Shown here one piece after another: positions 3,488 through 22,220 of a stretch of 64,000 nucleotides of DNA. The stretch is from contig CAXXDQ010000003.1 in NCBI GenBank assembly GCA_963664325.2, positions 224,001 to 288,000 of the forward strand, written 5' to 3'. Every line of letters begins with the position of its first letter. The stretch's first letter is position 1. Made by a program: the position numbers and the translations under genes. The DNA is from Desulfomonilia bacterium. Lineage in GTDB: Bacteria; Desulfobacterota; Desulfomonilia; UBA1062. The notes below the pieces were generated by a model that was given only the letters and a program-made list of their open reading frames with translations, was not told the DNA's origin and searched no databases.

Positions 3488-3832
3488 TTATTTATTCTTT
3501 GGCGCCGGGCGGAACAGATCCTTGAACTCCGGCAACTTGACCAAGTTGTCGAACCTGCTCTCCAATGCGGCAAAATCTCCCATCAGTCTTTTCCCGTCAG
3601 CGGTAAGTTTAGCCCCGGTCCTGCCCTGTCTGCCTTTTTCTACAAGGGTTATGCCCAGTCTTTTTTCATATTCCCTTATCCTTCCCCATGCTGCGCGATA
3701 GGACATCTCAAGCTCTTCGGCGGCCTTATGAAGCGAGCCTGTCTTCTCAATAAGCTCAAGCAATGACTGCACGCCCTTCCCGAATACGGGCATTCCGTTT
3801 TTTTCTATCCAGAGTCTGTATGAAATCTTCAT
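3488..3832 (-). CDS. modE: ModE-family regulator, winged-helix DNA-binding domain only
   Basis: LWIE...FGKG...LL..IEKTGSLHKAA..L.MSYRAAW..I...E..LG..LV; no TOBE domains. Confidence 0.85.
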   Translation of the reverse strand: MKISYRLWIEKNGMPVFGKGVQSLLELIEKTGSLHKAAEELEMSYRAAWGRIREYEKRLGITLVEKGRQGRTGAKLTADGKRLMGDFAALESRFDNLVKLPEFKDLFRPAPKNK

Positions 3833-3909
3833 GTTCTAATATTATTAACATCCATTTTTAAATTATCAAGATGCCATGTCATAAAAACTTTATGCATGAG
3901 GTTGTCTTA

Positions 3910-3929
3910 TTGTATACTGCCTGATATAA
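3910..3929. promoter_or_regulatory. ModE-type box 1 (modE/resB divergon)
   Basis: TTGTAT-N8-ATATAA, one mismatch to TTATRT-N8-AYATAA. Confidence 0.5.
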
Positions 3930-3956
3930 CAAACGGAAACCCATGGTTATCATTTT

Positions 3957-5003
3957 ATGAATATTAAAAACGTTTTCAACCGCTTAACAAGCAATCTTTC
4001 ATTGTTAAGGCTTGCGGTTTTTGTAATGTTGCTCCTGGCCGTCCTGCTGATAATCGAGACGGCAACGACGTTTATAATCCCTATGATACCAGGGGATTCC
4101 CTCAGGACAAGGTACCTGCTTAATCTTTTTGCAGAAAGCAGCCCCGTGTTGCTCGGGTTTATCGCGTCGGTACTCTGTCTCCTTATTGTCGCCTATGTCA
4201 TGAAGATGTCGATAATATCAAAAATCACCCTCAGACGTGCAGGGTTAATACTTTTTCACCTCGGAATACCAGTAATGCTTGCGGGTTACTTTGCAGGAAA
4301 ATTCGGACTAGATGCCGAGATGCATATACCAAAAGGGCAATCATCAAATATAATACACACCAAAGACGGAAGAACGGAGATGCTTGGCTTTTCAATCAGG
4401 TGCGAGGGGTTTGACGTAATTTATAATAAAGACGGCTCTCCGGCTGAGTTCGTTTCATATCTGAGCTTTATTAAAAATGGCGGGGTTCAAAAAAAATCAA
4501 TCCTGCGAGTAAATCATCCCGTCAGTTTTGAAGGAACGACATTGTACCAGTCCGCATATGCCTGCGAAGAAACTTCAATAATTAAGATCACAGACGGCAG
4601 TAAAACTACATGGTTTAAAACGGGGCCGGGTGATGAAATAAATCCTGTGAAAGGCGTGACGGTCCGGACAGGCCAGATATTTTCCGATCTCATGGATACG
4701 GGGCCTGCCGTGGAACTTTTCATCGAAACGCCTGATGGCTCGTACAATATGTGGCTTCTAAAAAATCTGAGGAAAATCATTGAAAGAAAGCCGGACTTCC
4801 TTGAAAGCCATCGTGAATTCGACCCGGCTCTTGTCAAGCCATTCATATTTATGCTGGAAGGCCTGAATTCGAGCTGCACAACGGGGCTTTCCGTCAGAAA
4901 AGACCCGGGATTAATCCTTGCAGCTTCTGGCGGGATAATGTTTGCAGTCGGGATAATCATAATCTTTATTCCACGGCCCGAGCCTGAAAAGCGGAGAGCA
5001 TGA
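3957..5003 (+). CDS. resB: Cytochrome c biogenesis protein ResB/Ccs1 (short form)
   Basis: TM with LFHLG, LRVNHPVSFEGTTLYQSAY, TGLSVRKDPG followed by a C-terminal TM. Confidence 0.85.
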   Translation: MNIKNVFNRLTSNLSLLRLAVFVMLLLAVLLIIETATTFIIPMIPGDSLRTRYLLNLFAESSPVLLGFIASVLCLLIVAYVMKMSIISKITLRRAGLILFHLGIPVMLAGYFAGKFGLDAEMHIPKGQSSNIIHTKDGRTEMLGFSIRCEGFDVIYNKDGSPAEFVSYLSFIKNGGVQKKSILRVNHPVSFEGTTLYQSAYACEETSIIKITDGSKTTWFKTGPGDEINPVKGVTVRTGQIFSDLMDTGPAVELFIETPDGSYNMWLLKNLRKIIERKPDFLESHREFDPALVKPFIFMLEGLNSSCTTGLSVRKDPGLILAASGGIMFAVGIIIIFIPRPEPEKRRA

Positions 5004-5004
5004 A

Positions 5005-5790
5005 ATGGATGCTAGGCTGACAATAGGTGCCCTGGTCTTATATGTATTTTCATTCCTGTGCCTGAGCAACAGGAAGACCTGGATAATTACTGCCGGAAAG
5101 TCCTTGGCCGTGACTGCTTTCGGGCTGCTGACAATAGCCCTTGCCCTGCGCTGGGTCGCTTCATACAGGGCAGGTTTTGGCCATGCCCCGGTATCGAACC
5201 TGTATGAGTCGCTTGTCGTGCTCTCATGGTCCTTTATGCTTGCCGCGCTATTATTTTTATGGATCAGGAAATCTTTGCAGGCGGTCATGTTTGCCTGTCC
5301 TATTATCGTGATGATCCTTTTGTATGCATGCTTTGCGCCGGGCGTGGACAATTCGATCAAGCCTCTTGTGCCGGCCCTTAAAAGCAACTGGCTGCTTATC
5401 CATGTGACAACCTGCATGACCGGCTATGCATTGCTGGCGCTTGGCACGGTTCTGACAGCGTATGATGCATATTCCAGATCTGGGCAAAAAAACAACAGGG
5501 CCCAGGAAGCGGCATCGGCATTCATTACCGCCGGATTTATCATTTTTTCATTCGGCATCATGACAGGCGCGGTCTGGGCGCAGACAGCCTGGGGAAGATA
5601 CTGGGGATGGGATCCCAAGGAGACATGGGCATTAATCACATGGCTTGTTTATGCCGCAAGCCTGCACGCCAGAAAGAAAAGCGGCAATTCAAGCATGTTG
5701 TATGCAGGTCTGGCCGTCTTCGGTTTGGCCTGCATAGTCTTCACTTATCTGGGCGTTAATTACATGCCAGGTTTGCACAGCTACTTCTGA
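5005..5790 (+). CDS. ccsA: System II cytochrome c synthetase CcsA/ResC
   Basis: HAPVSNLYES, PALKSNWLLIHV, WWD motif WAQTAWGRYWGWDPKETW, GLHSY. Confidence 0.95.
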   Translation: MDARLTIGALVLYVFSFLCLSNRKTWIITAGKSLAVTAFGLLTIALALRWVASYRAGFGHAPVSNLYESLVVLSWSFMLAALLFLWIRKSLQAVMFACPIIVMILLYACFAPGVDNSIKPLVPALKSNWLLIHVTTCMTGYALLALGTVLTAYDAYSRSGQKNNRAQEAASAFITAGFIIFSFGIMTGAVWAQTAWGRYWGWDPKETWALITWLVYAASLHARKKSGNSSMLYAGLAVFGLACIVFTYLGVNYMPGLHSYF

Positions 5791-5909
5791 GCCCGGCCCT
5801 ACAGCGGCATTTCATTACACAGCAGTTAAAGGTTTTATGCTTGATAGTGTGAAAAAGGCTGGGCCATCGGCTTATATGCTCTCAATATACAGCGGCATGA
5901 AATCTCGAC

Positions 5910-5937
5910 TTGACATATTATGTTGTGATTAACATAA
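5910..5937 (+). promoter_or_regulatory. -35 hexamer plus ModE-type box 2 upstream of the diheme protein
   Basis: TTGACA (5910-5915) followed by the perfect palindrome TTATGTT-GTGATT-AACATAA (5918-5937). Confidence 0.7.
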
Positions 5938-6060
5938 CATTCGGATTGCGGGATTTATTTTTTCCCGCATAGCAAAGAAAATGTGAAAGCAAGTGACGGG
6001 GATTATGTTTAACGGGCAATAAGCTTTGGCAAATCGATATTCTGTGGAAAAGAGGAACCC

Positions 6061-7539
6061 ATGAAAAATCACAAGATCTGGATCATGGCAACAGGAACCG
6101 TGCTCTTTATATGCGCCGCTTTTATATGCTACGCGGCATATACGCATGAAGGCGAGATCGATTCGCAAAAATTTCATGCCGTCTATCCCCGGACTGCAGG
6201 TACCAAACTTGACGATTGTTCCTTATGCCACAGGGGCGGCTCCAGTGTATCCGGAGGAAAAACGACTAACCTGGGCAGCTGCCAGTGGTGCCATTACAAG
6301 AGCAATTATGGCAAAACAGAAAAATATGATTATGCGGAAACCCTCAACAATTATGGGAAGGACTACCTCAGACAAGGCAGAAATGAAGCTGCAATAACGG
6401 CTATCCAGGATCTCGACTCCGATGGAGACGGGTACTCGAACAGAATAGAAATTGCCGCCCTCAGGTATCCCGGCGATCCGAATGACGACCCTGCGAAAGT
6501 TGCCGCACCTTCAAAGGTTTTCACGCGCGGGCAGCTTGAAGCCATGCCTCAACATACCCAGTTTCTCTTGTCTAATGCAAGCAAGTCAACAGATACCTAT
6601 GCCGAATACACTGGTGTTCCGATGGAGGACCTGTTGAAGCCGCTGTTGCTGCCATCGGCGACTGAAGTTACGGTCCTTTCCCCGGACGGTTACTCGCAAA
6701 CCCATCCATTCAATTATGATGCAACTCTCAACGTCTATTATGTGTACGGCAAATACCCTGCTGCAAAATTCTTTTATAACGATCAGGCCGACGTGGCAAA
6801 ACACCCTGAAACCGGATGGTGCGACTATTCGGCTCCATCGGTGGGGAAAAGGGTGAACGGTGATCGGATCGTCAACAAAGACGGGTTGAAGATGATACTT
6901 GCGTTCAAGAGGGATGGACAGTACCTGGCACCAGGCGTGCTGAATCTCCAGAATAAGCTAGATGGTGAGGGTCCCTTCAGAGTCGTCCCGCCCCAGAAGG
7001 TTGTCGGTCCTCCGGACCAGAGATCGACAGCGAAAAACGCACAGGACCCTGGTGCATGGATCTGGCCGTACCTGCCAAACGGGGACCACAATGTAGGAGC
7101 GTCGACCCGTTCTACAACAATCATGAGGGTAGGTCCCTTGCCAAAAGGGACAACCGACATTAATCTCCTCGAAGCCGGCTGGAACTATATCGGCCAGGAT
7201 AAAATCGTAATCTATGGGGCCATCAACCCGCTCGAAAACATCAATGAAAAGCTCATTCAACTGGCGGCCGCCATCGACTCAATGCCTCCGGAAAACTTTA
7301 CGACACCGACCGGGAAAGCGGCATTGAAGAGCAATGTGAAATCAGTACGGAAGATTCTTGATAAAGGTAATTACAGCGAGGCCTATCAGAAACTGCAGGA
7401 TGACATCATGGTTAAAATCAATATATGTAAAAATTCTGCTCATCCAGATGGAAGCGACTGGCTGAAAGACTGCGATACCCGGACAAAGCTCCACTGGGCT
7501 GTCAATGACATCATGGTGCTGCTGAAGATTTTACTATGA
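6061..7539 (+). CDS. GEGP-motif diheme c-type cytochrome with a sulfite-oxidase-like (molybdopterin-binding-type) domain
   Basis: Sec-type leader, CSLCH and CQWCH, DxDxDG (DSDGDG), then YTGVPMEDLL...SPDGY...MILAFKRDG...DGEGPFRVVPP; C-terminal helical domain. Confidence 0.75.
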   Translation: MKNHKIWIMATGTVLFICAAFICYAAYTHEGEIDSQKFHAVYPRTAGTKLDDCSLCHRGGSSVSGGKTTNLGSCQWCHYKSNYGKTEKYDYAETLNNYGKDYLRQGRNEAAITAIQDLDSDGDGYSNRIEIAALRYPGDPNDDPAKVAAPSKVFTRGQLEAMPQHTQFLLSNASKSTDTYAEYTGVPMEDLLKPLLLPSATEVTVLSPDGYSQTHPFNYDATLNVYYVYGKYPAAKFFYNDQADVAKHPETGWCDYSAPSVGKRVNGDRIVNKDGLKMILAFKRDGQYLAPGVLNLQNKLDGEGPFRVVPPQKVVGPPDQRSTAKNAQDPGAWIWPYLPNGDHNVGASTRSTTIMRVGPLPKGTTDINLLEAGWNYIGQDKIVIYGAINPLENINEKLIQLAAAIDSMPPENFTTPTGKAALKSNVKSVRKILDKGNYSEAYQKLQDDIMVKINICKNSAHPDGSDWLKDCDTRTKLHWAVNDIMVLLKILL

Positions 7540-7553
7540 CCTGCTTAAATCAA

Positions 7554-8297
7554 TTATTCAAGGTGGTACGTGATGGGAATGACAAGCTGGGCCTCACCGG
7601 GCGGCCTGGGGAATGGTGCGGTGTCGCGGACAGTCTTGATGGCGCTTTTATCCAGCACTATATAGCCTGAACTTTGAATTATCTTGAATGCCCTTACAGA
7701 GCCATTATCCGTTATGACAAAGGAAAGAAGGACCTTTCCCTGCCAGCCCATCCGTCTGGCCATATCTGGGTAGCTGACGTTCCCCAGGATTTTATCCCGG
7801 ATATAGGCAAAATGTTCGTTTAAATATTTCGTCCTGGCCGATTCTATGCTACCGTCACCGTTGCCCATGCCTGGGTTCGTCCCCGTTCCTTCTTTTATTC
7901 CTCCTGCGATACCGGGAGAACCTTCCTTCATATCCTTTGCCTGATCCGATATTTCCGCTCCCATGGGGCTGCTTTCCAGATTATTGGCTTCCGGCAGTTT
8001 CTCCACCGGCGGGACTTCCTGTACAGAGGATTTCCGGGGGGCCTCTTCCGGTTGCGGGGGAGGTTCTTCTTTCTTCATGACTGGACGGACTGCGGGACTA
8101 ATCAATTTTGTATTCATCAAAGGTGTCGGAACAAGCTCCTCGACCTTCTTGACTTCGGGAGGGGGCTTCAGCAGATCAAAATCCATGACCCTAGCCTTCT
8201 TGTATTGCCCCAGGAAAAGACTTCCAATGACGGCAAGGACAATAATTGCGGTATGAAGCAGGAAGGATATCTGGAAGGCTCTGGTCTGGTAGTTCAT
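7554..8297 (-). CDS. tonB: Energy transducer TonB
   Basis: SxxLH TM motif, Pro-rich linker, YPDMARRMGWQGKV...SSG..VLD. Confidence 0.93.
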   Translation of the reverse strand: MNYQTRAFQISFLLHTAIIVLAVIGSLFLGQYKKARVMDFDLLKPPPEVKKVEELVPTPLMNTKLISPAVRPVMKKEEPPPQPEEAPRKSSVQEVPPVEKLPEANNLESSPMGAEISDQAKDMKEGSPGIAGGIKEGTGTNPGMGNGDGSIESARTKYLNEHFAYIRDKILGNVSYPDMARRMGWQGKVLLSFVITDNGSVRAFKIIQSSGYIVLDKSAIKTVRDTAPFPRPPGEAQLVIPITYHLE

Positions 8298-8680
8298 GGA
8301 CCTTCCTCAGTCTGGAGACTGATGCGTTTAAATTCAAGCCCTTTGATAACGTCCAGGACGCTGACGAAGTTTTGAAGGATGATGCTGCGGTCCGCCCTGA
8401 TCAGGACAGGGGCTTTTTTGTTCATGTTTCCCAGATCGCTTTTCAATTCCTCCAGAGATACAAGTCTGGAGTTCAAATAAATTTTTCCGGCCTTATCGAT
8501 TTCAATCGTCTGGGTTTTCAGTATCTCCCCCGAGCTTCTATGGGCTTTGGGCAGGTCCATGGGGATCATTCCGCTGGCTATAAATGAAGAGGTCGTGAGC
8601 ACAATCGTAAGGAGCACTAGCATGACGTCGACCAGAGGAATGACATTGATGTAGTCAAACTCTTTTTCTTTCATGTTCAA
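8294..8680 (-). CDS. exbD: Biopolymer transporter ExbD
   Basis: INVIPLVDVMLVLL, LPKA, IRAD. Confidence 0.93.
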   Translation of the reverse strand: MNMKEKEFDYINVIPLVDVMLVLLTIVLTTSSFIASGMIPMDLPKAHRSSGEILKTQTIEIDKAGKIYLNSRLVSLEELKSDLGNMNKKAPVLIRADRSIILQNFVSVLDVIKGLEFKRISLQTEEGP

Positions 8681-9089
8681 TTTCCCAGCTCATTTGCAGG
8701 ACCTTAACTTTTCTCAAGAGAAAATTGTACAGGGAGACAGCGGGGATGGCCACCAGAAGACCTACGGCAGTGGCCTTCAATGCCAGCGCCAGACCTACCA
8801 TTATCTTTCCCGTATCCATAAAACCTTCCTTTCCGATCATGTAAAAGGTAAGCATGATGCCCAGAACAGTTCCCAGAAGGCCGATGTACGGTGCATTGCT
8901 GCCGATGGTTGCAATGAGGTGGATTTTTCTGGTGAGCTCAAGTTCCAGACTCTTTTGATCCGGGTAAGCGTCAAGTTTTACATGTTTAAAAAAATAAAAC
9001 CTTTCGATGGCAACTCCGATGGCAATGATGCTCAGGAAGATCAGAAAACCTATGATTCCATAATCTACGACAGCTTTAAGCCATTCCAT
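8655..9089 (-). CDS. exbB: TonB-system energizer ExbB (short type)
   Basis: IATIGSNAPYIGLLGTVLGIM and ALKATAVGLLVAIPA. Confidence 0.95.
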   Translation of the reverse strand: MEWLKAVVDYGIIGFLIFLSIIAIGVAIERFYFFKHVKLDAYPDQKSLELELTRKIHLIATIGSNAPYIGLLGTVLGIMLTFYMIGKEGFMDTGKIMVGLALALKATAVGLLVAIPAVSLYNFLLRKVKVLQMSWEIEHERKRV

Positions 9090-9145: not shown

Positions 9146-11569
9146 CTAAAAGCTTGCCCTTGCGCCTGCATACCACATTCGGCCGGGGCCGGGGTTGAAC
9201 GGGTCGGCGTTATAATCATCAAGTATATTTTTGCACATTATATATGCCTCGTAGTGTTTTAAAAATTTCTGTGAAAGCTTGACGTCTATTGAAATGGGAT
9301 TGTGGAGTTCCTGTTCATAGAAGTATGATGTGGAAAAAGGATCGGTGGATTTAGGTACGGATGCCATTACATACTGGATCTGATTATATTCCATATAGCC
9401 GAAAATGACCAGGCTTGTGCCTGTTTTAAAATATGTCCTCAAGTCAAAGGTTATTTTATGTTCAGGGAACTTCTCAAATTTATCGCCTTTATTTATAAAG
9501 GAATCGTCGATATCCGCCTGATTCCTGGCAAAGATATAGGTGTATGAAGGCGAGAAACTGACATCCGCTATATTGAAGACATCCATAAGATTCAAATTCA
9601 GTGTTGCCTCTAAACCGTGTATGACTGCAGAATCAATATTTCTGTATATATAGTCGTCGATCTTCGTAATATAAATTTTTGTGATTTTATCTTTATAATT
9701 GCTGTAAAAATAATCCCCGCCGAATGTCAGTTGCTTATCAAATAATGAGAGTTCAAAGCCCAGATCAACATTGATCATTTTTTCGGGTTGAATAATAACA
9801 TCCCTGCTTCCCAAGTCAGATGAAGTCTGATAGGGAGACAACGTTTTAGAATATGCCTGAAGCGTAGGGAAAGACGTTTTCCTGGATGCGGCAGCCTTGA
9901 GTTTTAAAACGTCCTTTACAGGCTCATATAAAATGTCTCCAACGGGATTGAAGGAATCGCGCGTCCCCCAAAGCGTGGAATCATCCGCGGCAATGTACTG
10001 GTCTACCATTTCCGTGCTTCCGTCAATTCCAAGTTTTCTCTGGTAATTTATTAGATCCTGGGCATCATAAGAAACTCCTAGCGTCAGATCTATATCTTTC
10101 ATTATATGCAGTTCGTCTTCAATGGCGCATGTAAGATAAGCGGCCCCGATTTCCAGTGTTTTGTATTTTCCTGTGCCGTAATATTTAATGGTTGTTGTTG
10201 ACTCATCATTGTATGCCTGTTCCTCTTCCAGATGATTGTTTACATAATATAGGAAAGCAAAGTTCAACCTGTTCCATGACGAAAGTTTGTATGAAGGATA
10301 TATGTTGAATCCATAGGTGCTGCTCGTCCATATGGACCATGTCATGGTGTCTGTATCCCTATGATATGCCAGAACTTTTTCCAGAGGATCGGCATAAGCC
10401 ATAAACTTGTTGGTATTTTCATAGTAGTAAGCATTGGCTTTCAATCCGAAGCCGCCTTTCTCGAAAATTATATATGGAGATACGGCGAAATCATTGTATT
10501 CGGGCCAGCTGCTTGAAATGTTGCGCAGGATATACGTGGTGTCAGGCAGTAGCCAGCCTTTCTCCTTTGTATAATCGTTATAAGTATACATGCTTCTCAT
10601 ATCTGTAAAGTAAGAGCTGTTTTCCATTTGAGTCAGATTATAAAAACCCGTTGCCCCTATATCCAGTTCAGGCGTTATATGGTATCCGACTTTACCGTTC
10701 AGTTTGTATTTTTCGTGCCCTATGTGATCCCATATCCCTGATTCATTCAGATAATAAGTGGCTGCGGAACTGCTTGGATGAGAGTAGATATCATTCAGGG
10801 TAAATCCGTAAAGATCATAACGGGAAAGCTTTAAAAGCCAGTCCTCACGTTCCTGGCGGTCGAGTTTATCTGATACCTTATACCCGTCCGACTTGTCATA
10901 CATGGCGGAGAACTGATAGTAAAAGTTACCAATAGGCGCACCATGAGCTATGCTTGCAACGAAGTTATTATATTCGCCATACTCTGCGGTGACATCAAGG
11001 TAAAGTTTAGTTGGTTTTTTTCTGATGAGATTGATTGAACCGACGGCGCCCTTCGTGCCGTACAAAGCAGACGTCGTGCCGCGGCTTACAATGATCTCCG
11101 CTATATCCGTCAGGCCTATGTTATCAATGTCCATGGTTCCGTTGAAGGAATCGATCAGAGGAATGTCATCCACCATTATGGCTACCTTTGACATGTCATA
11201 TCCGCGCATGTAAAACTGGGTAGTCCCTTTTCTCTGCGTTGAGACCTGAATGCCCGGCACCTGATACAGGACGTCCTTAAGCACTTTATCGCTTCTCTCT
11301 TCTATATCTTCTTCGGTAACCTCGGTTGTTGCGCCCCCTTTTACTATCTTGCCTTTATCAATATCTTTAATGCGGCGTTCCTTGACGACAATTTCCTCAA
11401 GCTGATATTCATTATCGGTTTTAGTTTTTTTGACCGGTTTGTCCTGTTTTTCCGAAGGCTGGTTTTGTGATTGCACTTCACCTGCTTTTTCGGTCTTGTT
11501 CGTTTCCTGTGCCATTAATTGTACACCATACACAAACAGCAACAGTGTTATCAGACTTAATAATCTCAT
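9146..11569 (-). CDS. TonB-dependent outer membrane receptor
   Basis: Likely start MRLLSLI at 11569; TonB box LEEIVV; plug VPGI...YMRG...IIVSRGTTSALYG..GAVGSINLI; NILD..Y...PGR and a terminal Phe. Confidence 0.93.
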   Translation of the reverse strand: MRLLSLITLLLFVYGVQLMAQETNKTEKAGEVQSQNQPSEKQDKPVKKTKTDNEYQLEEIVVKERRIKDIDKGKIVKGGATTEVTEEDIEERSDKVLKDVLYQVPGIQVSTQRKGTTQFYMRGYDMSKVAIMVDDIPLIDSFNGTMDIDNIGLTDIAEIIVSRGTTSALYGTKGAVGSINLIRKKPTKLYLDVTAEYGEYNNFVASIAHGAPIGNFYYQFSAMYDKSDGYKVSDKLDRQEREDWLLKLSRYDLYGFTLNDIYSHPSSSAATYYLNESGIWDHIGHEKYKLNGKVGYHITPELDIGATGFYNLTQMENSSYFTDMRSMYTYNDYTKEKGWLLPDTTYILRNISSSWPEYNDFAVSPYIIFEKGGFGLKANAYYYENTNKFMAYADPLEKVLAYHRDTDTMTWSIWTSSTYGFNIYPSYKLSSWNRLNFAFLYYVNNHLEEEQAYNDESTTTIKYYGTGKYKTLEIGAAYLTCAIEDELHIMKDIDLTLGVSYDAQDLINYQRKLGIDGSTEMVDQYIAADDSTLWGTRDSFNPVGDILYEPVKDVLKLKAAASRKTSFPTLQAYSKTLSPYQTSSDLGSRDVIIQPEKMINVDLGFELSLFDKQLTFGGDYFYSNYKDKITKIYITKIDDYIYRNIDSAVIHGLEATLNLNLMDVFNIADVSFSPSYTYIFARNQADIDDSFINKGDKFEKFPEHKITFDLRTYFKTGTSLVIFGYMEYNQIQYVMASVPKSTDPFSTSYFYEQELHNPISIDVKLSQKFLKHYEAYIMCKNILDDYNADPFNPGPGRMWYAGARASF

Positions 11570-11610
11570 TGTTGCATCCCTATGCCCAGAATCTATTTTT
11601 GCTGAGAAAA

Positions 11611-11671
11611 TGAATGCCGGTAGATATACCGGCATTCATTAGTGTTTATTCGGTATGATATCAACCGAATA
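11611..11671. terminator. Two stem-loops between lipoprotein 3 and the receptor gene
   Basis: TGAATGCCGGTA-GATA-TACCGGCATTCA and TATTCGGT...ACCGAATA inverted repeats. Confidence 0.5.
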
Positions 11672-13039: not shown

Positions 13040-13091
13040 AAAAAAAGCAGCCGTGCATGCCGGCTGTTAACATGCATGCAGGGCTGCTTTT
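13040..13091 (-). terminator. Rho-independent terminator-like hairpin inside the lipoprotein array
   Basis: AAAAGCAGCC...GGCTGCTTTT arms with a U-run on the minus strand (A7 at 13040-13046). Confidence 0.55.
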
Positions 13092-14666: not shown

Positions 14667-15722
14667 TTATTTTTCATCATATGCCTTTGCATAAGCCGGG
14701 GGATTTTTTGCAGAATAGTCATACTCAACAGGTGAACCGCTGATCAATTCAATCCTGACAGGATAATTTATCTTTGTACCGCTGACCACATTATTGGAAG
14801 CGTCAACCCTGATAATCAAGTCATAATCCGGCAAATAATAAGCCTGCTGCATATCGGCATAGGTCCAGCCGTTTTTATAGGTGCCGTCCAAGGCAATGAT
14901 CTTATAGGTAAAGCTTCCCGGTTTATCAGTAACATAATCAGTCAGGAACTGTTTCAATGGGATGACCTTTACATCCGTGTAATCTCCAAAGCTCACGGTT
15001 CCTACAGTGAATTTGGTAGTCCATAAGCCAGTGATAGAGTGATAGTATGTGTCATCCACATAGCTGTCGGCGGTTGCCTGGACTTCAAAGGTAGCAAGCG
15101 AGCCGGCTGCATCAGGTCTTTTCACGTCGATCTTGCGAAACATATACATGTCATAGGCATATTTATTATTATGTTTTTTCACAACACCGACTGATGCCGG
15201 GTAAAATACCCTTCCGCTATAATTCATGTCCAGCAGATAGCCCTGGATAAACTGGTCCCATCTCAGATCGGCAGTATATATTCCTAAACTCAGGAAATGA
15301 GAGCGGATGCTGAATCCATCCATGTTAGAGCGAACCAGTACAGAATATAATGCTCTGGCATCATTCGTTACCAATATGCCGTCAGGGTCCGGGGTTGCCT
15401 CATTTACGGCAGCTTTGTCTACAAACTGACCCAGCGCATATCCTGAAATCAGCGATCCGTCCTGATAAAGAATTGAATTTGTAAGGGCATAGCCGGAGAA
15501 AAGGGTTGCCGCCTCATCTGCAGCTTGACCTCCATTTTGCACATACGAATATTGATCCGGCAGGGTGTAGTGTAAAAATTGAGGTGCGATGCCGTCATAA
15601 GGCGTATTTTCAGAAGGCGTGTTAACACTGTCGCTTCCTCCTCCTCCGCCACCGCCTCCGCCGCAGGCGCTCAGAAATAGTGCAAGCAATAAAACAAAAA
15701 GCAATTTGGATATTTTGTTCAT
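14667..15722 (-). CDS. Lipoprotein paralog 1: poly-Gly tether plus the conserved domain
   Basis: Likely start MNKISK at 15722; lipobox LSAC followed by G9. Confidence 0.85.
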   Translation of the reverse strand: MNKISKLLFVLLLALFLSACGGGGGGGGGSDSVNTPSENTPYDGIAPQFLHYTLPDQYSYVQNGGQAADEAATLFSGYALTNSILYQDGSLISGYALGQFVDKAAVNEATPDPDGILVTNDARALYSVLVRSNMDGFSIRSHFLSLGIYTADLRWDQFIQGYLLDMNYSGRVFYPASVGVVKKHNNKYAYDMYMFRKIDVKRPDAAGSLATFEVQATADSYVDDTYYHSITGLWTTKFTVGTVSFGDYTDVKVIPLKQFLTDYVTDKPGSFTYKIIALDGTYKNGWTYADMQQAYYLPDYDLIIRVDASNNVVSGTKINYPVRIELISGSPVEYDYSAKNPPAYAKAYDEK

Positions 15723-15845
15723 ATGTAACACCCCCTGAATTTATTATGAAATAATATAGGGTATATCTAACACACTCCTTTCAAAGCCATCTGCTTGATC
15801 CAATAATTCATATTGAATAGCACCCAATTATTATAAGCACACTAT

Positions 15846-15874
15846 ATATTATGCATCATCAAACATAATGTCAA
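15846..15874 (-). promoter_or_regulatory. sigma70 promoter with ModE-type box 3 in the spacer, driving the lipoprotein-TBDR-exbBD-tonB operon
   Basis: Minus strand reads TTGACA-17 nt-TAATAT; TTATGT-N8-GCATAA (15849-15868) fills the spacer and overlaps the -10. Confidence 0.75.
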
Positions 15875-16294: not shown

Positions 16295-17410
16295 ATGGTT
16301 TGGTTAGCAAGATGTCCTTCCGTCCGTATTGTGCTATTCCTTTTGCTGCTGGCATCATGCGCACATAACCCCGGTTCGCATGCACAGGAACAAATACCTC
16401 CGTGGAAGTTCGCCGTTCTCTCTGATACTCAGGGTTCCCGGATGGCAGAGTCCCGGAAGCCATACATCAACGAAAGAATCCTTACGATAATTGTGCGCGA
16501 CATTGTCCTTGAACAGCCCGATTTTGTACTTGTTGCCGGTGATCTTGTGAACGGCTGGCTCCACAACGGCGGGACAGATTATCCAACCCAGTTTGAGGAA
16601 TGGAAAAAGATCATGCAGCCCGTTTATGAGGCCGGGATCAGAGTCTACCCCATACGGGGCAATCATGAAGACGGACCGGAGCGCTTTGCCCTGCCTCCTC
16701 TTCCGGCTCGCCTCGAACCGCCGGCCGACACGCAGAGAGCACTCAAGGAGGCTTTCCAACAGGCCTTTGACCAGGACTATATACCGCATAACGGCCCTTC
16801 AGGAGAAGAGGGGCTCACCTACAGTTTTCGTCACAAGAACGCCCTTATAATCGGCATAGACGTCTTCACCAATCATCAGCATAAAGTGAATCAGGCCTGG
16901 CTTGACGCCCAGTTGTCGTCCAAGACAGAGGCGCATCTCTTTGTTTATGGCCATGAGCCTGCATTTGGTGCAGGCCACATTGACAATCTCGCATTTTTTC
17001 CTCAGGAACGGGATCAATTCTGGAACTCAATCAGTAATGCAGGCGGACGCGTATACTTCTGTGGACATGACCATATGTATAACCGCGCCGCTATCGCTGA
17101 TAAAACCGGGAATGTGGTTCGCCAGATCGTATCCGGCACGGGCGGGGGTACACCGATGACATGGTCAGGCAAGTATGGCGAGGCAAAGAAAGTCAAGGGG
17201 GAATATTCCAAGAGCGGCCTTTACGGATATGTGCTGGTCACCGTTGAAGGACCCAGGGCAACAATAAAGTGGAAGGCAATAACTGATGGTCAGACCGGTG
17301 ATGCCTGGCAGGTTCTCGACACTTTTTCTTATACCATTTCTGAAAGGTCGGATAAGCAAGGGCAGATCCGACAATTCCCGGTGGCGGACAGGCTGCCGGC
17401 TTCTCCCTAG
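16295..17410 (+). CDS. Calcineurin-like metallophosphoesterase, probable lipoprotein
   Basis: LLLASC lipobox; SDTQ, GDLV, GNHE, GHEP and GHDH motifs. Confidence 0.88.
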   Translation: MVWLARCPSVRIVLFLLLLASCAHNPGSHAQEQIPPWKFAVLSDTQGSRMAESRKPYINERILTIIVRDIVLEQPDFVLVAGDLVNGWLHNGGTDYPTQFEEWKKIMQPVYEAGIRVYPIRGNHEDGPERFALPPLPARLEPPADTQRALKEAFQQAFDQDYIPHNGPSGEEGLTYSFRHKNALIIGIDVFTNHQHKVNQAWLDAQLSSKTEAHLFVYGHEPAFGAGHIDNLAFFPQERDQFWNSISNAGGRVYFCGHDHMYNRAAIADKTGNVVRQIVSGTGGGTPMTWSGKYGEAKKVKGEYSKSGLYGYVLVTVEGPRATIKWKAITDGQTGDAWQVLDTFSYTISERSDKQGQIRQFPVADRLPASP

Positions 17411-17700: not shown

Positions 17701-17717
17701 ATTTGTTTCCTCCTTTT

Positions 17718-18803
17718 CTATTGTTTATTAATTACATGAACCCCGGTGGCCTTGAATGATACAGTCACAACTTTGCCTTTTTCAAGCATTAATTCGGCTG
17801 CAGAGTTCTCAGTCACATAAGCGGTAAGTGAAAAGCCGCAATCAATATCGATCTTCAGGTAAAAGCTCTTCGGGACGATGCGCGTTATAATACCTGAAAG
17901 GACGTTTCTTGCACTGGTGTTGAAATCCTGAGAAAGCGAAACAGTGACGTTTTCAGGTCTTATTCCCAGCAGGACTTTACCGCCTGTTTTTGCCCGTCCA
18001 ATTGCCTCGAGCTGCCTGTTCGATGCCTCGACTATAATCATGCTGTTTTCTGATGATTTTACTGTCCCTTCTATCAAGGTTTCCATGCCCATGAACGATG
18101 CTATGAATTCATTCTCGGGATGGTTCATGACATCGACAGGGGCGCCTTTCTGCACGATCCTTCCCTTATCCATTACTGCAATTACGGTTGATAGTCTTAG
18201 CGCCTCATCCTGGTCATGCGTCACTATAACGGCGGTCGTGCCCGTTTCTCTCAGCACTTCACCAAAGTCATCAATCATAATCTCGCGGGTAGGTTTATCG
18301 AGTGAGGAAAAAGGTTCGTCCATGAATATTATGTCCGGCAGGACTGCGAATGCGCGTGCAAGACTGACCCTCTGCGCCTCTCCGCCCGAAAGGTTTCTTG
18401 CTGAACGCTTTAAAAGATGGGTGATGCCGAAACGTTCCGCCTGAAGATTGACCATCTCCAATATATCCTGCCTGTCCGCCTTCCTGAACCTTAGTCCTGA
18501 TGCAATGTTGGCGAAAACACTCGTGTCGAAAAGGAGCGCATCCTGGAAGACGCAGGCGGTCAAACGTCTGTAGTCAAGCATGTCCCCGTTATGGGACACC
18601 TCTTTCCCTCTGAAGACGATTGTCCCGGATGAGGGTTTAAGCAGGCCTGCAATGGCGAGCAGCAGGCTTGACTTGCCTGCGCCATTGGGCCCGATGAGGG
18701 TAAGGTGCGATCCTTTTTCAATTTCAAGTTCATCAATATTGACAACCTCAACTCCGCCGCGGGCGACTTGAAAAGATGTTATTGAAAGTATGGGTGCCTG
18801 CAT
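17718..18803 (-). CDS. tupC: Tungstate ABC transporter ATPase with C-terminal TOBE domains
   Basis: GPNGAGKS, LSGGEAQRV, MDEP; C-terminal TSARN...SFKATGVH. Confidence 0.88.
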   Translation of the reverse strand: MQAPILSITSFQVARGGVEVVNIDELEIEKGSHLTLIGPNGAGKSSLLLAIAGLLKPSSGTIVFRGKEVSHNGDMLDYRRLTACVFQDALLFDTSVFANIASGLRFRKADRQDILEMVNLQAERFGITHLLKRSARNLSGGEAQRVSLARAFAVLPDIIFMDEPFSSLDKPTREIMIDDFGEVLRETGTTAVIVTHDQDEALRLSTVIAVMDKGRIVQKGAPVDVMNHPENEFIASFMGMETLIEGTVKSSENSMIIVEASNRQLEAIGRAKTGGKVLLGIRPENVTVSLSQDFNTSARNVLSGIITRIVPKSFYLKIDIDCGFSLTAYVTENSAAELMLEKGKVVTVSFKATGVHVINKQ

Positions 18804-18805
18804 GC

Positions 18806-19504
18806 TTATCTCGGTCGTTTTCTCTGCTGTATCATTGTAAGTCCAAGATTAATAAGGAATGTCAGCAGGAGAAGTATAACACCCAGTGCTATCGCCACGT
18901 CAAAGTTCCCTTTACCGGTTTCCATGACAGTGGCCGTTGTAAGCACCCGGGTGTAGTTCTTGATATTGCCGCCCACCATTATTGAAGCGCCCACTTCGGA
19001 TATAACGCCTCCGAAGCCGGCCATAATGGCGGCCATCAAGGGCAATCTGGCCTCTTTTGCAAGCATCCAGAGCATCTGGGCCCGGGTTGCCCCGAGCCCC
19101 AGTATTTGAAGGCGCATTTTTTCTGGCAGGTTCTGAATGGCTGCAATGGAAAGCCCCATGATTATGGGTGTGGCGATAACCGCCTGGGCAATGATTATAG
19201 CGGTCGGCGTATAAAGAAGCCCCAGACTTCCTAGCGGGCCGTTTCTCCATAAAAAGATTGTTACAAAAAGGCCGACAACCACTGGCGGCAGTCCCATGCC
19301 TGTGTTTATGGTGCTGATGACAAGTTGTCTTCCCGGAAACTGATTCAGGCCTATCAGCATTCCTAAGCCTATACCCAGAAAAAGGCTTATGAAAGTGGCA
19401 AGGCCTGAGACTTTAAGAGTAAGCAGTGTGATCCCGATTACTTCCGGGTCAAAAGAAAAAAGCAGGACTATAGCCTGCCATATGCCTTTGAAGATTAGAT
19501 CCAT
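18806..19504 (-). CDS. tupB: Tungstate ABC transporter permease
   Basis: NTGMGLPPVVVGL, GPLG, SEVGASIMVGGNI...TRVLTTA. Confidence 0.92.
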   Translation of the reverse strand: MDLIFKGIWQAIVLLFSFDPEVIGITLLTLKVSGLATFISLFLGIGLGMLIGLNQFPGRQLVISTINTGMGLPPVVVGLFVTIFLWRNGPLGSLGLLYTPTAIIIAQAVIATPIIMGLSIAAIQNLPEKMRLQILGLGATRAQMLWMLAKEARLPLMAAIMAGFGGVISEVGASIMVGGNIKNYTRVLTTATVMETGKGNFDVAIALGVILLLLTFLINLGLTMIQQRKRPR

Positions 19505-19517
19505 GAGTTAAATATAA

Positions 19518-19544
19518 GGGCCTTCCTTGTCCAGGGGAAGGCCC
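19518..19544. other. Intercistronic stem-loop after tupA
   Basis: GGGCCTTCC...GGAAGGCCC arms; typical mRNA stabiliser after an SBP gene. Confidence 0.5.
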
Positions 19545-19598
19545 GCTCAACCGGAAATAGGAGAGGTTGCCTGGTTGAGTTCAAAATACTAATATTTT

Positions 19599-20435
19599 CT
19601 ACTCGGCTTTGCCTGCATCGGGGAAGAACAACGGCGAGCCGTATTTCTTTACGCCGAACTTTCCAATGTCGGCCTGAATTTGCTTTGACACCATGAAGTC
19701 GGAAAACGCTTTTGCGCCTTCCGCATTGACCTTCGGGAATTTTGCAGGGTTGATTTCGATGACGTGGTAGATATTGAGCAGGCTCTTGTCACCCTCGGAA
19801 AGAATAACGAGCCCAAGGTTTTTCTTCAATGAAAGGTATGTTCCGCGGTCTGCAATTGTATAGCCGTTCTTTTCTGCGGCTACATTGAGTGTCTGCCCCA
19901 TGCCGAGCCCTGTCTGCTGATACCATTTCTGGCCTTCGGGATTAATCCCGGCGGCTTTCCAGAGCCCCTTTTCCTTGGCATGTGTGCCGGAATTGTCGCC
20001 GCGTGAGATAAACAGGGATCCGCTGTCGGCAATCAGTTTCATTGCATCTTTAACCGTTTTTGCGGATTTTATTTTTGCAGGATCTGACTCGGGTCCCACA
20101 ATGATGAAGTCGTTATGCATGATGAGTTTGCGGTTTACACCATTGCCGGCATCCATAAACTTTTTTTCGGCGTCAGGTGAATGAACGAGCAGCACATCTG
20201 CCTCACCCCTTTCTCCCATTGCCATTGCCTGGCCAGAACCGACGGCTATGGTTTTGACAAAATAGCCGGTCTGCTTCTCGAATATTGGCAGAAGCTCATC
20301 AAGAAGGCCTGTGTCCTGTGTGCTTGTCGTTGTGGCAAGGATGACCGTCTTGTTTGCAGGGGCCGCTTGCACAGGAACGACAAGCATCAATGCGGTGATA
20401 AGGGCAATGATAACAGTTAAAAATTGCTTTCTCAT
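19599..20435 (-). CDS. tupA: Tungstate-binding protein TupA (canonical)
   Basis: ATTTSTQDTGLL, VHSP, HNDFIIVGP, SRGDNSGTH, DRGT. Confidence 0.93.
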   Translation of the reverse strand: MRKQFLTVIIALITALMLVVPVQAAPANKTVILATTTSTQDTGLLDELLPIFEKQTGYFVKTIAVGSGQAMAMGERGEADVLLVHSPDAEKKFMDAGNGVNRKLIMHNDFIIVGPESDPAKIKSAKTVKDAMKLIADSGSLFISRGDNSGTHAKEKGLWKAAGINPEGQKWYQQTGLGMGQTLNVAAEKNGYTIADRGTYLSLKKNLGLVILSEGDKSLLNIYHVIEINPAKFPKVNAEGAKAFSDFMVSKQIQADIGKFGVKKYGSPLFFPDAGKAE

Positions 20436-20450
20436 GGTATTATCCTCCAG

Positions 20451-21293
20451 TTATTTGTTTTTAATATATGCTTTTGATTCAGGAACAAACAAAGCTTGGC
20501 CGTATTTGTCAACGCCGAAGGTCTTGATGATTTTCTGGCCCTTATCAGGATCGGTGAGCCATGCAGCAAAGGTCAGGGCGTCTTTCGAGTTGACGTCTTT
20601 ACATTTGTCCTGGTTTACCGGAATAATGCTTATATGGTTTATAAGTGCTTCATCCCCTTCGACAAGAATGACCAGATTTGTCTCTTTCCCGGCACCGAGC
20701 CATGTCGCCCTGTCTATTATAGTGTAGGCTTGCCCGTCGGAAGCTTCCTTAAGTGTTGCCGTATTTCCAAGGTCTCCTTTTAATCCTTTGAAATACCATG
20801 CGCCCTGCGGAACGATACCGGCCTTTTTCCATATGGCGAGTTCTGCGACATTGGTCCCTGATTTATCCCCGCGGGTTAAGAACTTTACGTTTTTGCCGGC
20901 GATTGCAGTAAAGGCTTCCGATGCTGTTTTCATGCCTTTAATACCTGCTGGATCAGCTGTCGGGCCCACTATTACAAAGTCATTGTACATCAAAGGCATA
21001 CGCTCGGTTCCGAAACCCTCTGCAATGAATTTATCTTCAAGCTCCTTTGCATGTACCAGAACGATATCCACCTGGCATTTGCGTGCGATATCAAGCGCAG
21101 CGCCCGTGCCTGCCGAAATATGCCTTACTGTTATGCCTGTATCTTTTAAAAAACCCTGCTCCAGGACATCTATTATGCCTGAATCGACCGGTCCTATCGT
21201 GCTTGCCAGAAGTACGAAGCCGCTGTTTCCTGCGGCAACTGTCTGGGTATAAATGACAAGGATAAAAAAGGCTGAAATTAATATTTTCTTCAC
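20451..21293 (-). CDS. TupA-like substrate-binding protein, variant
   Basis: Same fold motifs as TupA, but STIGP replaces TTTS and SGTN replaces SGTH. Confidence 0.85.
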   Translation of the reverse strand: MKKILISAFFILVIYTQTVAAGNSGFVLLASTIGPVDSGIIDVLEQGFLKDTGITVRHISAGTGAALDIARKCQVDIVLVHAKELEDKFIAEGFGTERMPLMYNDFVIVGPTADPAGIKGMKTASEAFTAIAGKNVKFLTRGDKSGTNVAELAIWKKAGIVPQGAWYFKGLKGDLGNTATLKEASDGQAYTIIDRATWLGAGKETNLVILVEGDEALINHISIIPVNQDKCKDVNSKDALTFAAWLTDPDKGQKIIKTFGVDKYGQALFVPESKAYIKNK

Positions 21294-21303
21294 ATTATCC
21301 CCC

Positions 21304-22220
21304 TCATGTCTCCGGCCATATTACCGTGCCGGAACATTTGAAATCGTAATGTTCGAATGCATTGGCCTGGGCCTTGAATTCATCAGACCTTAAAACCGAT
21401 ATAAGGTCCTGAACCTGACGTTTAAAGAAATTATTCTTGGCAAGCACCATGTCGAATCTTTCGCTGGAAAGCGGAAAAAAATTAAGCCCCAGCATTGATG
21501 CTACAGAACCTGTGGCAACGCCAGCATCGGCCCTTCCCGATAACACGGCAAGACCTACTTCAAGGTGTGTAAAAACCACATTATCGTAACCAGCGATTGA
21601 TGATGGATCAATGTCTGATCTCTGAATAAGATCATCAAGCAAAAGTCTTGTCCCCGAGCCCGCCTGACGGTTTACAATCCTTATGTCTTTTTTCCAAGGT
21701 CCGGAATTGTTTTAATGTGCTTGGAGCTCTTTGGGGATGTTACTATACCTGTCTCCCGTGTAAACATGCTCAGTATGACTGCATCCAGCCCGGGTGCCAG
21801 TCTGGAGATGAACGGGAGATTGTACTGTCCGCTGTCCTTATCGAATAAATGTGACCATGCTATATCAACCAGGCCTTTTCCTAGCGCTGTAAGCCCATGA
21901 GAACTCCCGGTATTGGCTGAAAATACAATAATATCGGGATGAGACAACCTGAACGTTGAAAGTAGAAGGTCGAGTACAGGGTCGTTGCTGCCTGCGGCGA
22001 GAAGAGCACCCGGCATCCGGGCCGCCTTTTCCATTGCCTGTTTCATGCCTGCCCTGACATTGTCCTCAATCCATGAATCAATTATATATTTAGGAAATAT
22101 CCATTTGCCGGTAGCCTTGGTACACGGGATTTTACCTTCTTTTATAAGTGCATAAACCTGTTTTTCATGTATCTCGAGATAGGATGCAACCTCTTTTGTG
22201 TTCATCATTTCTTTTGACAT
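21304..22220 (-). CDS. Excisionase-HTH + PBP molybdate/tungstate regulator (TaoR-like), split by a frameshift at 21688-21693
   Basis: N-terminal MNTKEVASYLEIHEKQVY...IPCTKATGKWIFP; GSND; after a -1 shift it continues DIRIVNRQAGSGTRLLLD...THLEVG.AV..G.ADAG...ERFD. Confidence 0.82.

Follow-up and report, generated by a model that had tools for sequence, protein, structure and literature searches.

A candidate tungsten and molybdenum acquisition island, with a possible outer-membrane route for pterin cofactor, in a Desulfomonilia bacterium

What question does this locus raise?

How do molybdenum and tungsten (Mo/W) cross the outer membrane of a bacterium, and could they arrive already mounted in their pterin cofactor? 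The accepted route for molybdate and tungstate is passage through porins, to which the outer-membrane crossing is usually ascribed, followed by import through the Mod, Tup or Wtp ATP-binding cassette (ABC) systems, and we know of no transporter for the molybdenum cofactor (Moco) or tungsten cofactor (Wco) in any bacterium. The question is raised by a stretch of 64,000 nucleotides (nt), hereafter the window, from a Desulfomonilia bacterium (assembly GCA_963664325.2, contig CAXXDQ010000003.1, positions 224,001-288,000, forward strand), in which one gene block, the island, combines a Tup-type importer and a diheme cytochrome with a TonB-dependent receptor (TBDR) and a set of exported lipoproteins.

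Our answer comes in graded parts. We consider it quite probable that the outer-membrane module serves to acquire Mo/W in one form or another, and propose more tentatively, at somewhat less than an even chance, that its ligand is a pterin cofactor. The complete statement, that the island is a dedicated W/Mo acquisition locus leaning towards a pterin-cofactor ligand, strikes us as evenly poised. An earlier reading of the window, which we call the original prediction, had proposed capture, import and processing of such a cofactor or of a metallophore; predicted folds, gene neighbourhoods and a riboswitch and phyletic pattern in distant relatives all support this proposal, while the ligand and the processing steps are what we infer from them.

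What does the island encode?

Genes were called from an open reading frame (ORF) listing together with Pfam and NCBIfam scans of the window proteins, and these place a single block at window positions 3488-22220 that holds the genes named by the original prediction, bar its mop and modE labels.

3488..3832, minus strand: ModE-N-like regulator of 114 amino acids (aa), helix-turn-helix (HTH) part only (PF00126, 44.9 bits; TIGR00637, 58 bits, under the cut-off of 98.5)
3957..5003, plus strand: ResB-like System II cytochrome c maturation protein (PF05140, 100.8 bits)
5005..5790, plus strand: CcsA-like cytochrome c assembly protein (PF01578, 150.9 bits; one of two PF01578 matches in the genome)
6061..7539, plus strand: GEGP-motif diheme c-type protein, 492 aa (NF041762, 438.9 bits, over the cut-off of 300)
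7554..8297, minus strand: TonB (PF03544, 65.1 bits)
8294..8680, minus strand: ExbD (PF02472, 82 bits)
8655..9089, minus strand: ExbB (PF01618, 100 bits)
9146..11635, minus strand: TBDR, 829 aa, of a rare divergent clade (plug domain, 65.4 bits)
11682..12920, minus strand: lipoprotein paralog, 412 aa, with lipobox, one Ig-like repeat and the conserved ~300-aa domain
13126..14607, minus strand: lipoprotein paralog, 493 aa, with two Ig-like repeats and the conserved domain
14667..15731, minus strand: lipoprotein paralog, 354 aa, the conserved domain alone, its C-terminal half predicted to be SUOX/PruR-like (AF2 model)
16295..17410, plus strand: lipoprotein calcineurin-like metallophosphoesterase (PF00149, 53.3 bits; lipobox LLASC)
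17718..18803, minus strand: TupC/WtpC-like ABC ATPase with C-terminal TOBE (PF00005 and PF03459; NF040840, 298.7 bits, under the cut-off of 440)
18806..19504, minus strand: TupB-like permease (PF00528)
19599..20435, minus strand: TupA-like binding protein 1 (PF12849, 184.8 bits; NF041772, 268.2 bits, under the cut-off of 400)
20451..21293, minus strand: TupA-like binding protein 2 (PF12849, 117.8 bits; NF041772, 188.7 bits, under the cut-off of 400)
21304..22220, minus strand: TunR/TaoR-type regulator (HTH_17 and PBP_like by Pfam), in two ORFs through a frameshift, intact in the orthologs at two related loci, L010 and L011

We would divide this list into three modules: an inner-membrane Tup-type ABC importer with two TupA-like proteins, apparently co-transcribed with the TunR/TaoR-type regulator; the GEGP diheme protein, with a putative SUOX/PruR-like domain lacking the Mo-ligand Cys and its own ResB/CcsA pair adjoining; and an energised outer-membrane set of three SUOX/PruR-like lipoproteins, TBDR, ExbB, ExbD and TonB, from which the phosphoesterase gene diverges. 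In the mechanism that we favour, the lipoproteins would capture an extracellular Mo/W species, preferably Moco/Wco or a fragment of it, the TBDR would pull this into the periplasm, and the phosphoesterase and diheme protein would dismantle it there. TupA would then pick up the freed tungstate or molybdate, and TupBC would import it to feed cofactor synthesis within the cell. Surface exposure of the lipoproteins and regulation of the island by Mo/W are presumed in this scheme.

The host would have use for these metals, with MoaC, MoaA, MoeA and six AOR-family genes in its genome. Its only TupA-like genes are the two in the island and no ModA was found in the genome (95.6% complete), so that the island would be the main, and perhaps the only, point of entry for W/Mo. 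The NF041772 scores of the two TupA-like proteins, both under the cut-off, do not decide between W and Mo as the preferred metal.

Do the exported proteins have a pterin-binding fold?

The three lipoproteins are paralogs with a common domain of ~300 aa (66-75% identity) set behind zero, one or two Ig-like repeats, and this domain, many of whose invariant residues are acidic or aromatic, is matched by no Pfam or NCBIfam model in the scans of the window proteins. The family is small: an index of 5.8 billion proteins gave 80 matches, a search of 1.84 billion proteins gave 110 cluster representatives at E<=1e-3, of which 23 reach E<=1e-30, and 400 other genomes sampled from the phylum to which the window belongs gave none. 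The ESM Atlas yielded unnamed lipoprotein clusters alone, at 0.90-0.91 and with a recognition value under the reliable range.

Structure prediction is more informative. An AlphaFold model of the 354-aa paralog, built from a 36-sequence alignment with a predicted local distance difference test (pLDDT) score of 87.1, was compared with 48,161 chains by VIA-align, and the top ten matches all had the SUOX fold (Z 5.6-9.4), the next unrelated chain reaching Z 4.6. SoxC came first (Z 9.4, root-mean-square deviation 2.9, 107 aa), and with it the pterin-binding protein PruR (7kp2, Z 8.4 over 112 of 138 residues; 7rkb, Z 8.0 over 118 of 146), SorA (Z 8.2) and then SorT, the nitrate reductase Mo domain, sulfite oxidases and YedY, down to Z 5.6. 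These matches are confined to residues ~196-334.

The diheme protein consists of a signal peptide, two CxxCH motifs (CSLCH and CQWCH), a SUOX/PruR-like domain (residues 148-360) and a four-helix bundle (389-492); with DGEGPF at residues 301-306 it is a member of NF041762, and the heme cysteines C53, C56, C74 and C77 are invariant in 35 GEGP sequences. Its AF2 model is weaker (pLDDT 71). Residues 148-360 match SUOX-fold chains at Z 8.0-9.9 by VIA-align, among them PruR (7rkb, Z 9.9 over 122 of 146 residues, and another entry at Z 9.6), SoxC (9.1), the nitrate reductase Mo domain (8.6) and SorA (8.5).

The SUOX-like fold that the original prediction had given to these four exported proteins is therefore borne out at the level of fold only, by AlphaFold models and VIA-align. 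Other methods gave less: in a Foldseek search of the PDB neither model had a match at E<=0.001, the entries of SUOX fold and of PruR appearing weakly at E 0.1-0.8, hhalign found no relation between the lipoproteins and GEGP, and the GEGP alignment met that of SUOX-like neighbours from other loci at a probability of 16.7. Two further features predicted at the outset also stand. The catalytic Cys appears to be missing, in that no invariant or near-invariant Cys occurs beyond the lipobox of the lipoproteins and the four heme-motif Cys of GEGP, a judgement made on sequence alignments rather than by structural superposition on the Mo-ligand Cys position. In addition, the leaders are of the Sec or lipoprotein type, with no consensus twin-arginine translocation (Tat) signal; the 493-aa lipoprotein (MERFERRLSG) has an RR pair in a non-consensus context. 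PruR shows that a SUOX fold of this Cys-less kind is able to hold a pterin in the periplasm (PMC11194511).

Which genes keep company with the receptor and the lipoproteins?

A scan of one genome per species for lipoprotein homologs gave 14 loci (L010-L023), 12 of the close family and two distant, and the close-family neighbourhoods were compared by tblastn with the window proteins and by Pfam and NCBIfam scans of the neighbours. The lipoprotein gene lies directly upstream of an orthologous TBDR at 11 of the 12 close-family loci and in the same cluster at the twelfth, L017. The TBDR is itself 60-87% identical to seven orthologs, matches solved receptors in the plug only, reaches the cut-off of no NCBIfam model (its best weak similarities, far under the cut-offs, are to siderophore, heme and B12 receptors) and belongs to a clade found in none of the 400 own-phylum genomes at E<=1e-40. 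Around the lipoprotein-TBDR pair the following genes were found.

Window, L010 and L011: tup genes, regulator and ModE-N, within ~10 kb
L016: ModA (197.5 bits, cut-off 62.5), ModB, ModC and an HTH-PBP_like regulator
L018: ModD (252.8 bits, cut-off 178.85), two ModA, ModB, ModC and a phosphoesterase
L021: TupABC and a tandem SUOX-like protein with one CxxCH
L013: ModA-type ABC genes (ModA, 179.5 bits), FmdE, a ModE-N-like gene and a Mo-oxidoreductase
L020: MoeA
L017: GEGP and a phosphoesterase, on short flanks without a Mo/W gene

Mo/W genes thus lie within ~10 kb of the pair in six of seven lineages, and since a genome has just one to three Mo/W loci, this is far beyond chance. Indeed, far from turning up without any link to these metals, the TBDR and lipoprotein homologs accompany mod, tup or MoeA genes and ModE-N-like or PBP_like regulators, as the original prediction had supposed. 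This linkage also speaks against our second rival explanation, that the lipoprotein-TBDR module imports a ligand unrelated to Mo/W, to which we return below.

The diheme protein has a wider life of its own. NF041762 occurs in 26 of the 400 own-phylum genomes, once in each. Of these 26 loci we examined 20: 11, drawn from six genome families, have a tupA-like gene no more than 9 kb away, three (including two that lack tupA) have a TunR-like regulator, and a further one has ModE-N, so that 13 of 20 carry some Mo/W marker. One ORF cluster recurs in 13 of the 20 loci; the three members that were scanned proved to be Porin_O_P, and its gene stands directly upstream of GEGP in the four examples examined. 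From this linkage to tupA, regulator and porin we take GEGP to be a general companion of Tup uptake.

Several of these loci hold curiosities of their own. L010, the closest relative, has two lipoprotein genes rather than three, and the place that the phosphoesterase takes in the window, between tupC and the lipoprotein genes, is occupied there by a Porin_O_P gene together with a further, shorter GEGP gene (L010:6936-9450). L013:6474-8222 (also in L012 and L014) encodes a protein of 582 aa whose signal peptide is followed by a tandem pair of SUOX-like domains and, at the C-terminus, by a tetrapyrrole-methylase-family domain. Such a methylase-like domain is odd in an exported protein, S-adenosylmethionine not being expected outside the cytoplasm. 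The exported tandem SUOX-like protein of L021 (3617-4651), with its single CxxCH, matches both PF00174 (26.1 bits) and the GEGP model NF041762 (33.6 bits), and may in evolutionary terms connect plain SUOX-like carriers with the GEGP cytochrome. Finally, the metagenome-assembled genomes that bear the TBDR are labelled Spirochaetota, Desulfobacterales, Smithella and others despite its 60-87% identity, and to judge from the sequences the module looks to have spread horizontally, and recently, among anaerobes.

What do the distant relatives tell us?

L023, one of the two distant loci, both of which are labelled Cloacimonadota-type, encodes a 266-aa lipoprotein that hhalign relates to the family profile at 99.3% (E 7e-21, 219 columns, 30% identity), and because the alignment covers both halves of the lipoprotein domain we regard it as a true homolog. 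Its cluster runs, in order, through the homolog, an energy-coupling factor (ECF) S-like gene, an exported PF00174 protein, a lipoprotein type I phosphodiesterase, a small protein, an ABC ATPase, a 217-aa protein, a TBDR and CbiQ. The exported SUOX protein is matched by PF00174 at 38.8 bits (cut-off 24) and has no Cys whatever. Fifteen further loci of that phylum, labelled Cloacimonadota, all have a related TBDR, 12 have the SUOX protein, and the phosphodiesterase and the ECF S-like gene are each present in eight. Directly upstream, on the same strand, an RF01055 Moco/Wco riboswitch was found at every one of the eight distant loci scanned (59-76 bits, cut-off 36), and no cobalamin or other riboswitch was found ahead of these operons.

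What these bacteria lack is just as instructive. The source genomes G401 and G402 have AOR and no MoaC or MoaA match, and we extended the comparison to a sample of 81 Cloacimonadota genomes (among G401-G485). MoaC is present in nine of them, MoeA in the same nine, AOR in 58 (57 over the cut-off), the lipoprotein homolog in 40 and a TupA-like gene in one, a MoaC-positive genome; 72 have no match to MoaC or MoeA. Fifty-one of the 81 have AOR genes yet no MoaC or MoeA match. Cross-tabulated by hand, the homolog occurs in 37 of the 51 genomes with AOR and without MoaC, in three of the 21 with neither and in none of the nine with MoaC, a pattern among kin rather than a statistic.

A cell with tungsten enzymes and without MoaA, MoaC, MoeA or Tup must get finished cofactor from somewhere, and the pattern suggests that Cloacimonadota depend widely on an outside supply of tungsten or molybdenum cofactor. 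The riboswitch operon, with its receptor, capture lipoprotein, carrier of Moco-binding fold, phosphodiesterase and ECF importer, is the obvious candidate for taking it up. Two unrelated kinds of exported phosphoesterase, calcineurin-like in the window and alkaline-phosphatase-like in the distant branch, would fit a ligand with a phosphate or pyrophosphate ester. PF13531 was tried as a proxy for ModA/WtpA in this phylum and set aside as too broad, with 57 of 81 genomes matching; scores of at least 110 bits occur in eight of the nine MoaC-positive genomes and in two MoaC-negative ones (G438 and G449), from which we draw no firm conclusion.

Since the window lipoproteins belong to the same family and have the same kinds of partner as those of the riboswitch operons, we favour metal scavenged from extracellular cofactor as the business of the island, with a non-pterin W/Mo species as the main rival. 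Taken to its full extent, and offered as a tentative proposal at somewhat less than even odds, the lipoprotein family would mark the first bacterial uptake pathway for Mo/W pterin cofactor, passing from lipoprotein to TBDR. In Cloacimonadota, under control of the Moco/Wco riboswitch, the exported SUOX-fold carrier, the phosphodiesterase and the ECF importer would then bring Moco/Wco, supplied by neighbours, to auxotrophic AOR-bearing cells without a MoaA, MoaC or MoeA match. In the window lineage the outer-membrane module, joined to Tup and the diheme protein, would instead strip W/Mo from the scavenged cofactor.

What weighs against this reading, and what else could the island do?

Several points speak against this reading, and they are best seen together. 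PF00174 matches none of the four exported proteins at E<=0.01, and phmmer and profile hmmsearch against PDB sequences gave nothing relevant for them. The N-terminal half of the lipoprotein domain (residues 50-195) matched no fold in VIA-align, and hhalign aligns the lipoproteins with the tandem SUOX-like neighbours through their signal peptides alone. Z values of 8-10 lie within the range for which the tool warns of common arrangements, the matches nonetheless standing apart from the unrelated rows. The Cloacimonadota sample has a nominal completeness of >=80%, with several matches on megabase contigs, and its genomes, as said, are kin. The distant branch lies at ~30% identity, over which the substrate may have shifted. 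Tetrapyrrole-methylase-like, DUF364, radical SAM and Peripla_BP_2 genes at some loci (L013 and L020) may hint at a different ligand. The regulator is frameshifted in this assembly. Furthermore, the host makes Moco, so that importing ready-made cofactor is not needed as such, and the close-family lipoprotein and TBDR are both missing from the own-phylum genomes that bear GEGP, whose pairing with an anion porin points to a small anion rather than to a cofactor.

Many of these points, and some others, feed the main rival, which we consider possible though on the unlikely side: the island does acquire W/Mo, and the ligand is no pterin but the oxyanion at trace levels, the metal as a thio- or poly-oxometalate, or a complex of W/Mo with some organic chelator. 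Here the SUOX-like domains would be generic binders of anions or chelates, the diheme protein would act in metal redox, and the phosphoesterase would serve as a binder or cleave a chelator. The close-family module is always coupled to Mod/Tup oxyanion importers rather than to the ECF type, and all the close-family genomes tested (the window's own and those of L018, L013 and L021) have MoaC. GEGP normally lies between the gene for an anion-selective Porin_O_P and tupA, and L010 has the porin, a second GEGP and the TBDR module together. DUF364 ('heavy-metal chelation'), radical SAM and methyltransferase genes at L013 and L020 could make a chelator. Nor was an RF01055 riboswitch found in the window, either at the gathering score or at E<=1 over 3300-22800, or at any of nine close-family loci; the linkage to Moco riboswitches that the original prediction had raised thus holds for the distant homologs (8/8) and not for the window or its nearer kin. 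Four things keep us from adopting this alternative. The Cloacimonadota homolog operates largely without Tup (1/81) and MoeA (9/81), where free metal would be useless; the fold that the models give to all four exported proteins is a Moco- and pterin-binding one; the Pfam scans of the window show no chelator biosynthesis genes; and the acidic and aromatic types so frequent among the invariant residues of the lipoproteins are not what one expects of an oxyanion site.

The second rival, that the lipoprotein-TBDR module brings in a tetrapyrrole-like compound, a corrinoid, heme or iron and that metal-uptake genes merely cluster with it, we find improbable. It draws on the neighbours seen elsewhere, for example the tetrapyrrole-methylase-like, DUF364 and Peripla_BP_2 genes already named, together with a CcsA-like gene, a second TBDR and the methylase-family domain fused to exported SUOX-like domains. 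It can also point to the 'cobalt' family names of the Cloacimonadota ECF parts (PF09819 and CbiQ), to the faint resemblance of the receptor to siderophore, heme and B12 receptors, and to the novel metal porphyrins that Aklujkar et al. speculated about beside such channels in their 2012 paper (PMC3543383). Set against this are the Mo/W genes adjoining the module in six of seven lineages, when a genome holds so few of them, a Moco riboswitch and no other ahead of all eight distant operons, and the distribution of the homolog, in none of the nine Moco-making Cloacimonadota genomes and in 37 of the 51 with AOR and no MoaC.

The third, that the Cys-less SUOX-like proteins are PruR-like pterin sensors or parts of an extracytoplasmic electron-transfer chain rather than of an uptake system, seems to us very improbable: PruR is indeed among the best structural matches of both models, a PAS-GGDEF gene adjoins the island (22397-23305) and GEGP, a c-type cytochrome, comes with its own genes for maturation, but that GGDEF protein has no periplasmic part and is missing at the syntenic L010, PruR works with a membrane partner of the DcpA type (PMC11194511), the lipoproteins consistently go with a TBDR that is served by its own TonB-ExbBD, and the relatives' operons encode importers.

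What do the remaining parts of the island suggest?

The regulators are in part not what they first seemed. What the original prediction called mop (21304-21642) is no Mop protein: this ORF covers positions 109-193 of PF12727 and is the C-terminal half of a regulator whose N-terminal half, HTH_17 and PF12727 positions 4-91, is the ORF at 21681-22220 that had been called taoR-like. The halves are out of frame by one base at an A-run near 21690 (21680-21700), and the orthologs at L010 and L011 are single frames of ~305 aa (NF011068, C-terminal part 220 bits); this could be a homopolymer error of the assembly or a real loss of the regulator. Four sequencing runs contributed no reads to 21250-22300. 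The names TunR and TaoR for a regulator of HTH_17 and PBP_like build are ones that we take to apply. As for modE, the ModE-like HTH is there (PF00126), while the molybdate-binding Mop/TOBE part is not, the 114-aa protein falling under the TIGR00637 cut-off; its ortholog at L010 is 80% identical and a relative at the Smithella locus L013 is 38% identical.

The non-coding features are as follows.

5917..5938: palindrome ATTATG-N10-CATAAc, one mismatch, beside a TTGACA box, upstream of the diheme gene
6002-6023: weaker copy of the palindrome, upstream of the diheme gene
13043..13091: hairpin with 18-nt arms, 94% complementary, then a T-run, between lipoprotein genes 2 and 3
15846..15874, minus strand: promoter-like TTGACA-17-TAATAT overlapping the perfect palindrome
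15848-15869: perfect palindrome ATTATG-N10-CATAAT, upstream of the lipoprotein-TBDR-exbBD-tonB operon

The palindrome had been thought to recur at three promoters. Its half-sites TTATG and CATAA do occur in three intergenic regions, but they have the same layout, TTATG-N10-CATAA, at two of these (5918 and 15849), the site between modE and resB (3880) reading CATAA-N5-TTATG. Counted with spacers of N8-12, the pattern appears twice in the window where 0.70 would be expected, a count attained in 18 of 100 shuffles and so not significant alone; both N10 boxes are kept in the orthologous promoters of L010 and L011. We consider the palindrome a plausible candidate operator. The hairpin at 13043-13091 is a possible internal terminator or attenuator, and may give the first two lipoproteins levels unlike those of the downstream receptor genes.

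The phosphoesterase has orthologs of 57% and 53% identity in the clusters of L017 and L018. Its first motif, SDTQG, has Gln where His is presumably usual, and the second reads GDLVNG, so that the protein, going by its motifs, may bind instead of hydrolyse.

Beyond the island the flanks are unrelated, with RecC, metallo-beta-lactamase and Rex-like genes upstream and PAS-GGDEF, cation diffusion facilitator efflux and LysR genes downstream. The PAS-GGDEF gene diverges from the regulator gene. As L010, though syntenic, has no such gene, it probably stands outside the system, and we rejected its product, which has PAS and GGDEF domains alone, as a PruR-type partner.

How does the island compare with known systems, and why does it matter?

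If we are right, the island represents an energised outer-membrane route tied to Mo/W, and functions would fall to the lipoprotein family, to the TBDR clade that goes with it and to the widely distributed GEGP diheme protein, all three so far unnamed or named by description only. The AOR genes of the 51 genomes, out of 81 sampled in one phylum, that have no MoaC or MoeA match would find an explanation too, and a candidate economy of shared cofactor would come into view for anaerobic communities, whose syntrophs and fermenters rely on tungsten enzymes.

The accepted route for molybdate and tungstate is well represented here, with two TupA-like proteins, TupB and TupC with TOBE (PF12849, PF00528, PF00005 and PF03459, the NF041772 scores being under 400), and with GEGP lying mostly between an anion porin gene and tupA. 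The island differs in adding an energised outer-membrane step with capture lipoproteins. In the open-access full-text literature that we searched, no TonB-dependent tungstate or molybdate system was found, nor anything on the 'GEGP' diheme protein or the linkage of tupA, porin and cytochrome, nor, on molybdopterin in Cloacimonadota or on Moco salvage, any description of such a system.

The nearest approach comes from Aklujkar et al. (2012), who noted in passing that in Pelobacter carbinolicus ligand-gated outer-membrane channels adjoin c-type cytochromes, 'molybdopterin-binding proteins' and Moco riboswitches, in clusters that also hold tetrapyrrole methyltransferase-like genes, and guessed at metal transport (PMC3543383). 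To judge from that text, this is an annotation remark without analysis, and the clusters resemble L013 and L021 more than the window; our one-genome-per-species scan for the lipoprotein family gave no locus under the name Pelobacter carbinolicus among its 14. The claim that no system of this layout had been described therefore stands for a Mo/W or Moco/Wco version, as far as the open literature goes, and is softened by this remark.

Compared with SUOX molybdoenzymes, the exported proteins have the fold and lack the PF00174 sequence match, the conserved Mo-ligand Cys and Tat export. PruR is a closer likeness. It is a periplasmic pterin-binding protein, again of SUOX fold without the Mo-ligand Cys, that stands alone at ~140 aa and controls a DcpA-type diguanylate cyclase-phosphodiesterase with a periplasmic loop and GGDEF/EAL domains; it binds small, non-Moco pterins in a shortened pocket, held by a Tyr/Trp sandwich, an Asn contact and a PW motif (PMC11194511). 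Like PruR, the island proteins are exported and, on the models, share the SUOX fold without that Cys, with 112-123 of 138-146 residues aligned. Unlike PruR, they carry this fold as part of larger lipoproteins or a cytochrome, tied to transport genes and without an operon partner of the DcpA type.

ECF-type importers under cofactor riboswitches are familiar for thiamin, B12, folate and queuosine, and the coenzyme categories of the survey concerned include, in its available text, no Moco transporter (PMC3766115). The Cloacimonadota operons combine a cofactor riboswitch, ECF parts and a TBDR just as B12 uptake loci do, whereas the window has neither ECF parts nor a riboswitch. TBDR-lipoprotein pairs and cofactor piracy are known kinds of system, and it is the Mo/W or Moco/Wco version that is not described in the open literature searched.

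Bipartite systems of TBDR and lipoprotein include TbpB/TbpA and HpuA/HpuB of Neisseria, and BtuG/BtuB and SusD/SusC of Bacteroidota. The island lipoprotein differs from all of these in its predicted SUOX/PruR-like fold and in having no Pfam model, and its TBDR in matching solved receptors in the plug only. The putative pair resembles them in the plug domain of the receptor and in the adjacent lipoprotein gene, and the locus has its own TonB-ExbBD. As with TbpB/TbpA, the lipoprotein gene is fixed beside the TBDR (11/12 loci), in the order lipoprotein then receptor as in tbpBA, and for the capture of a complex cofactor BtuG/BtuB provides the precedent.

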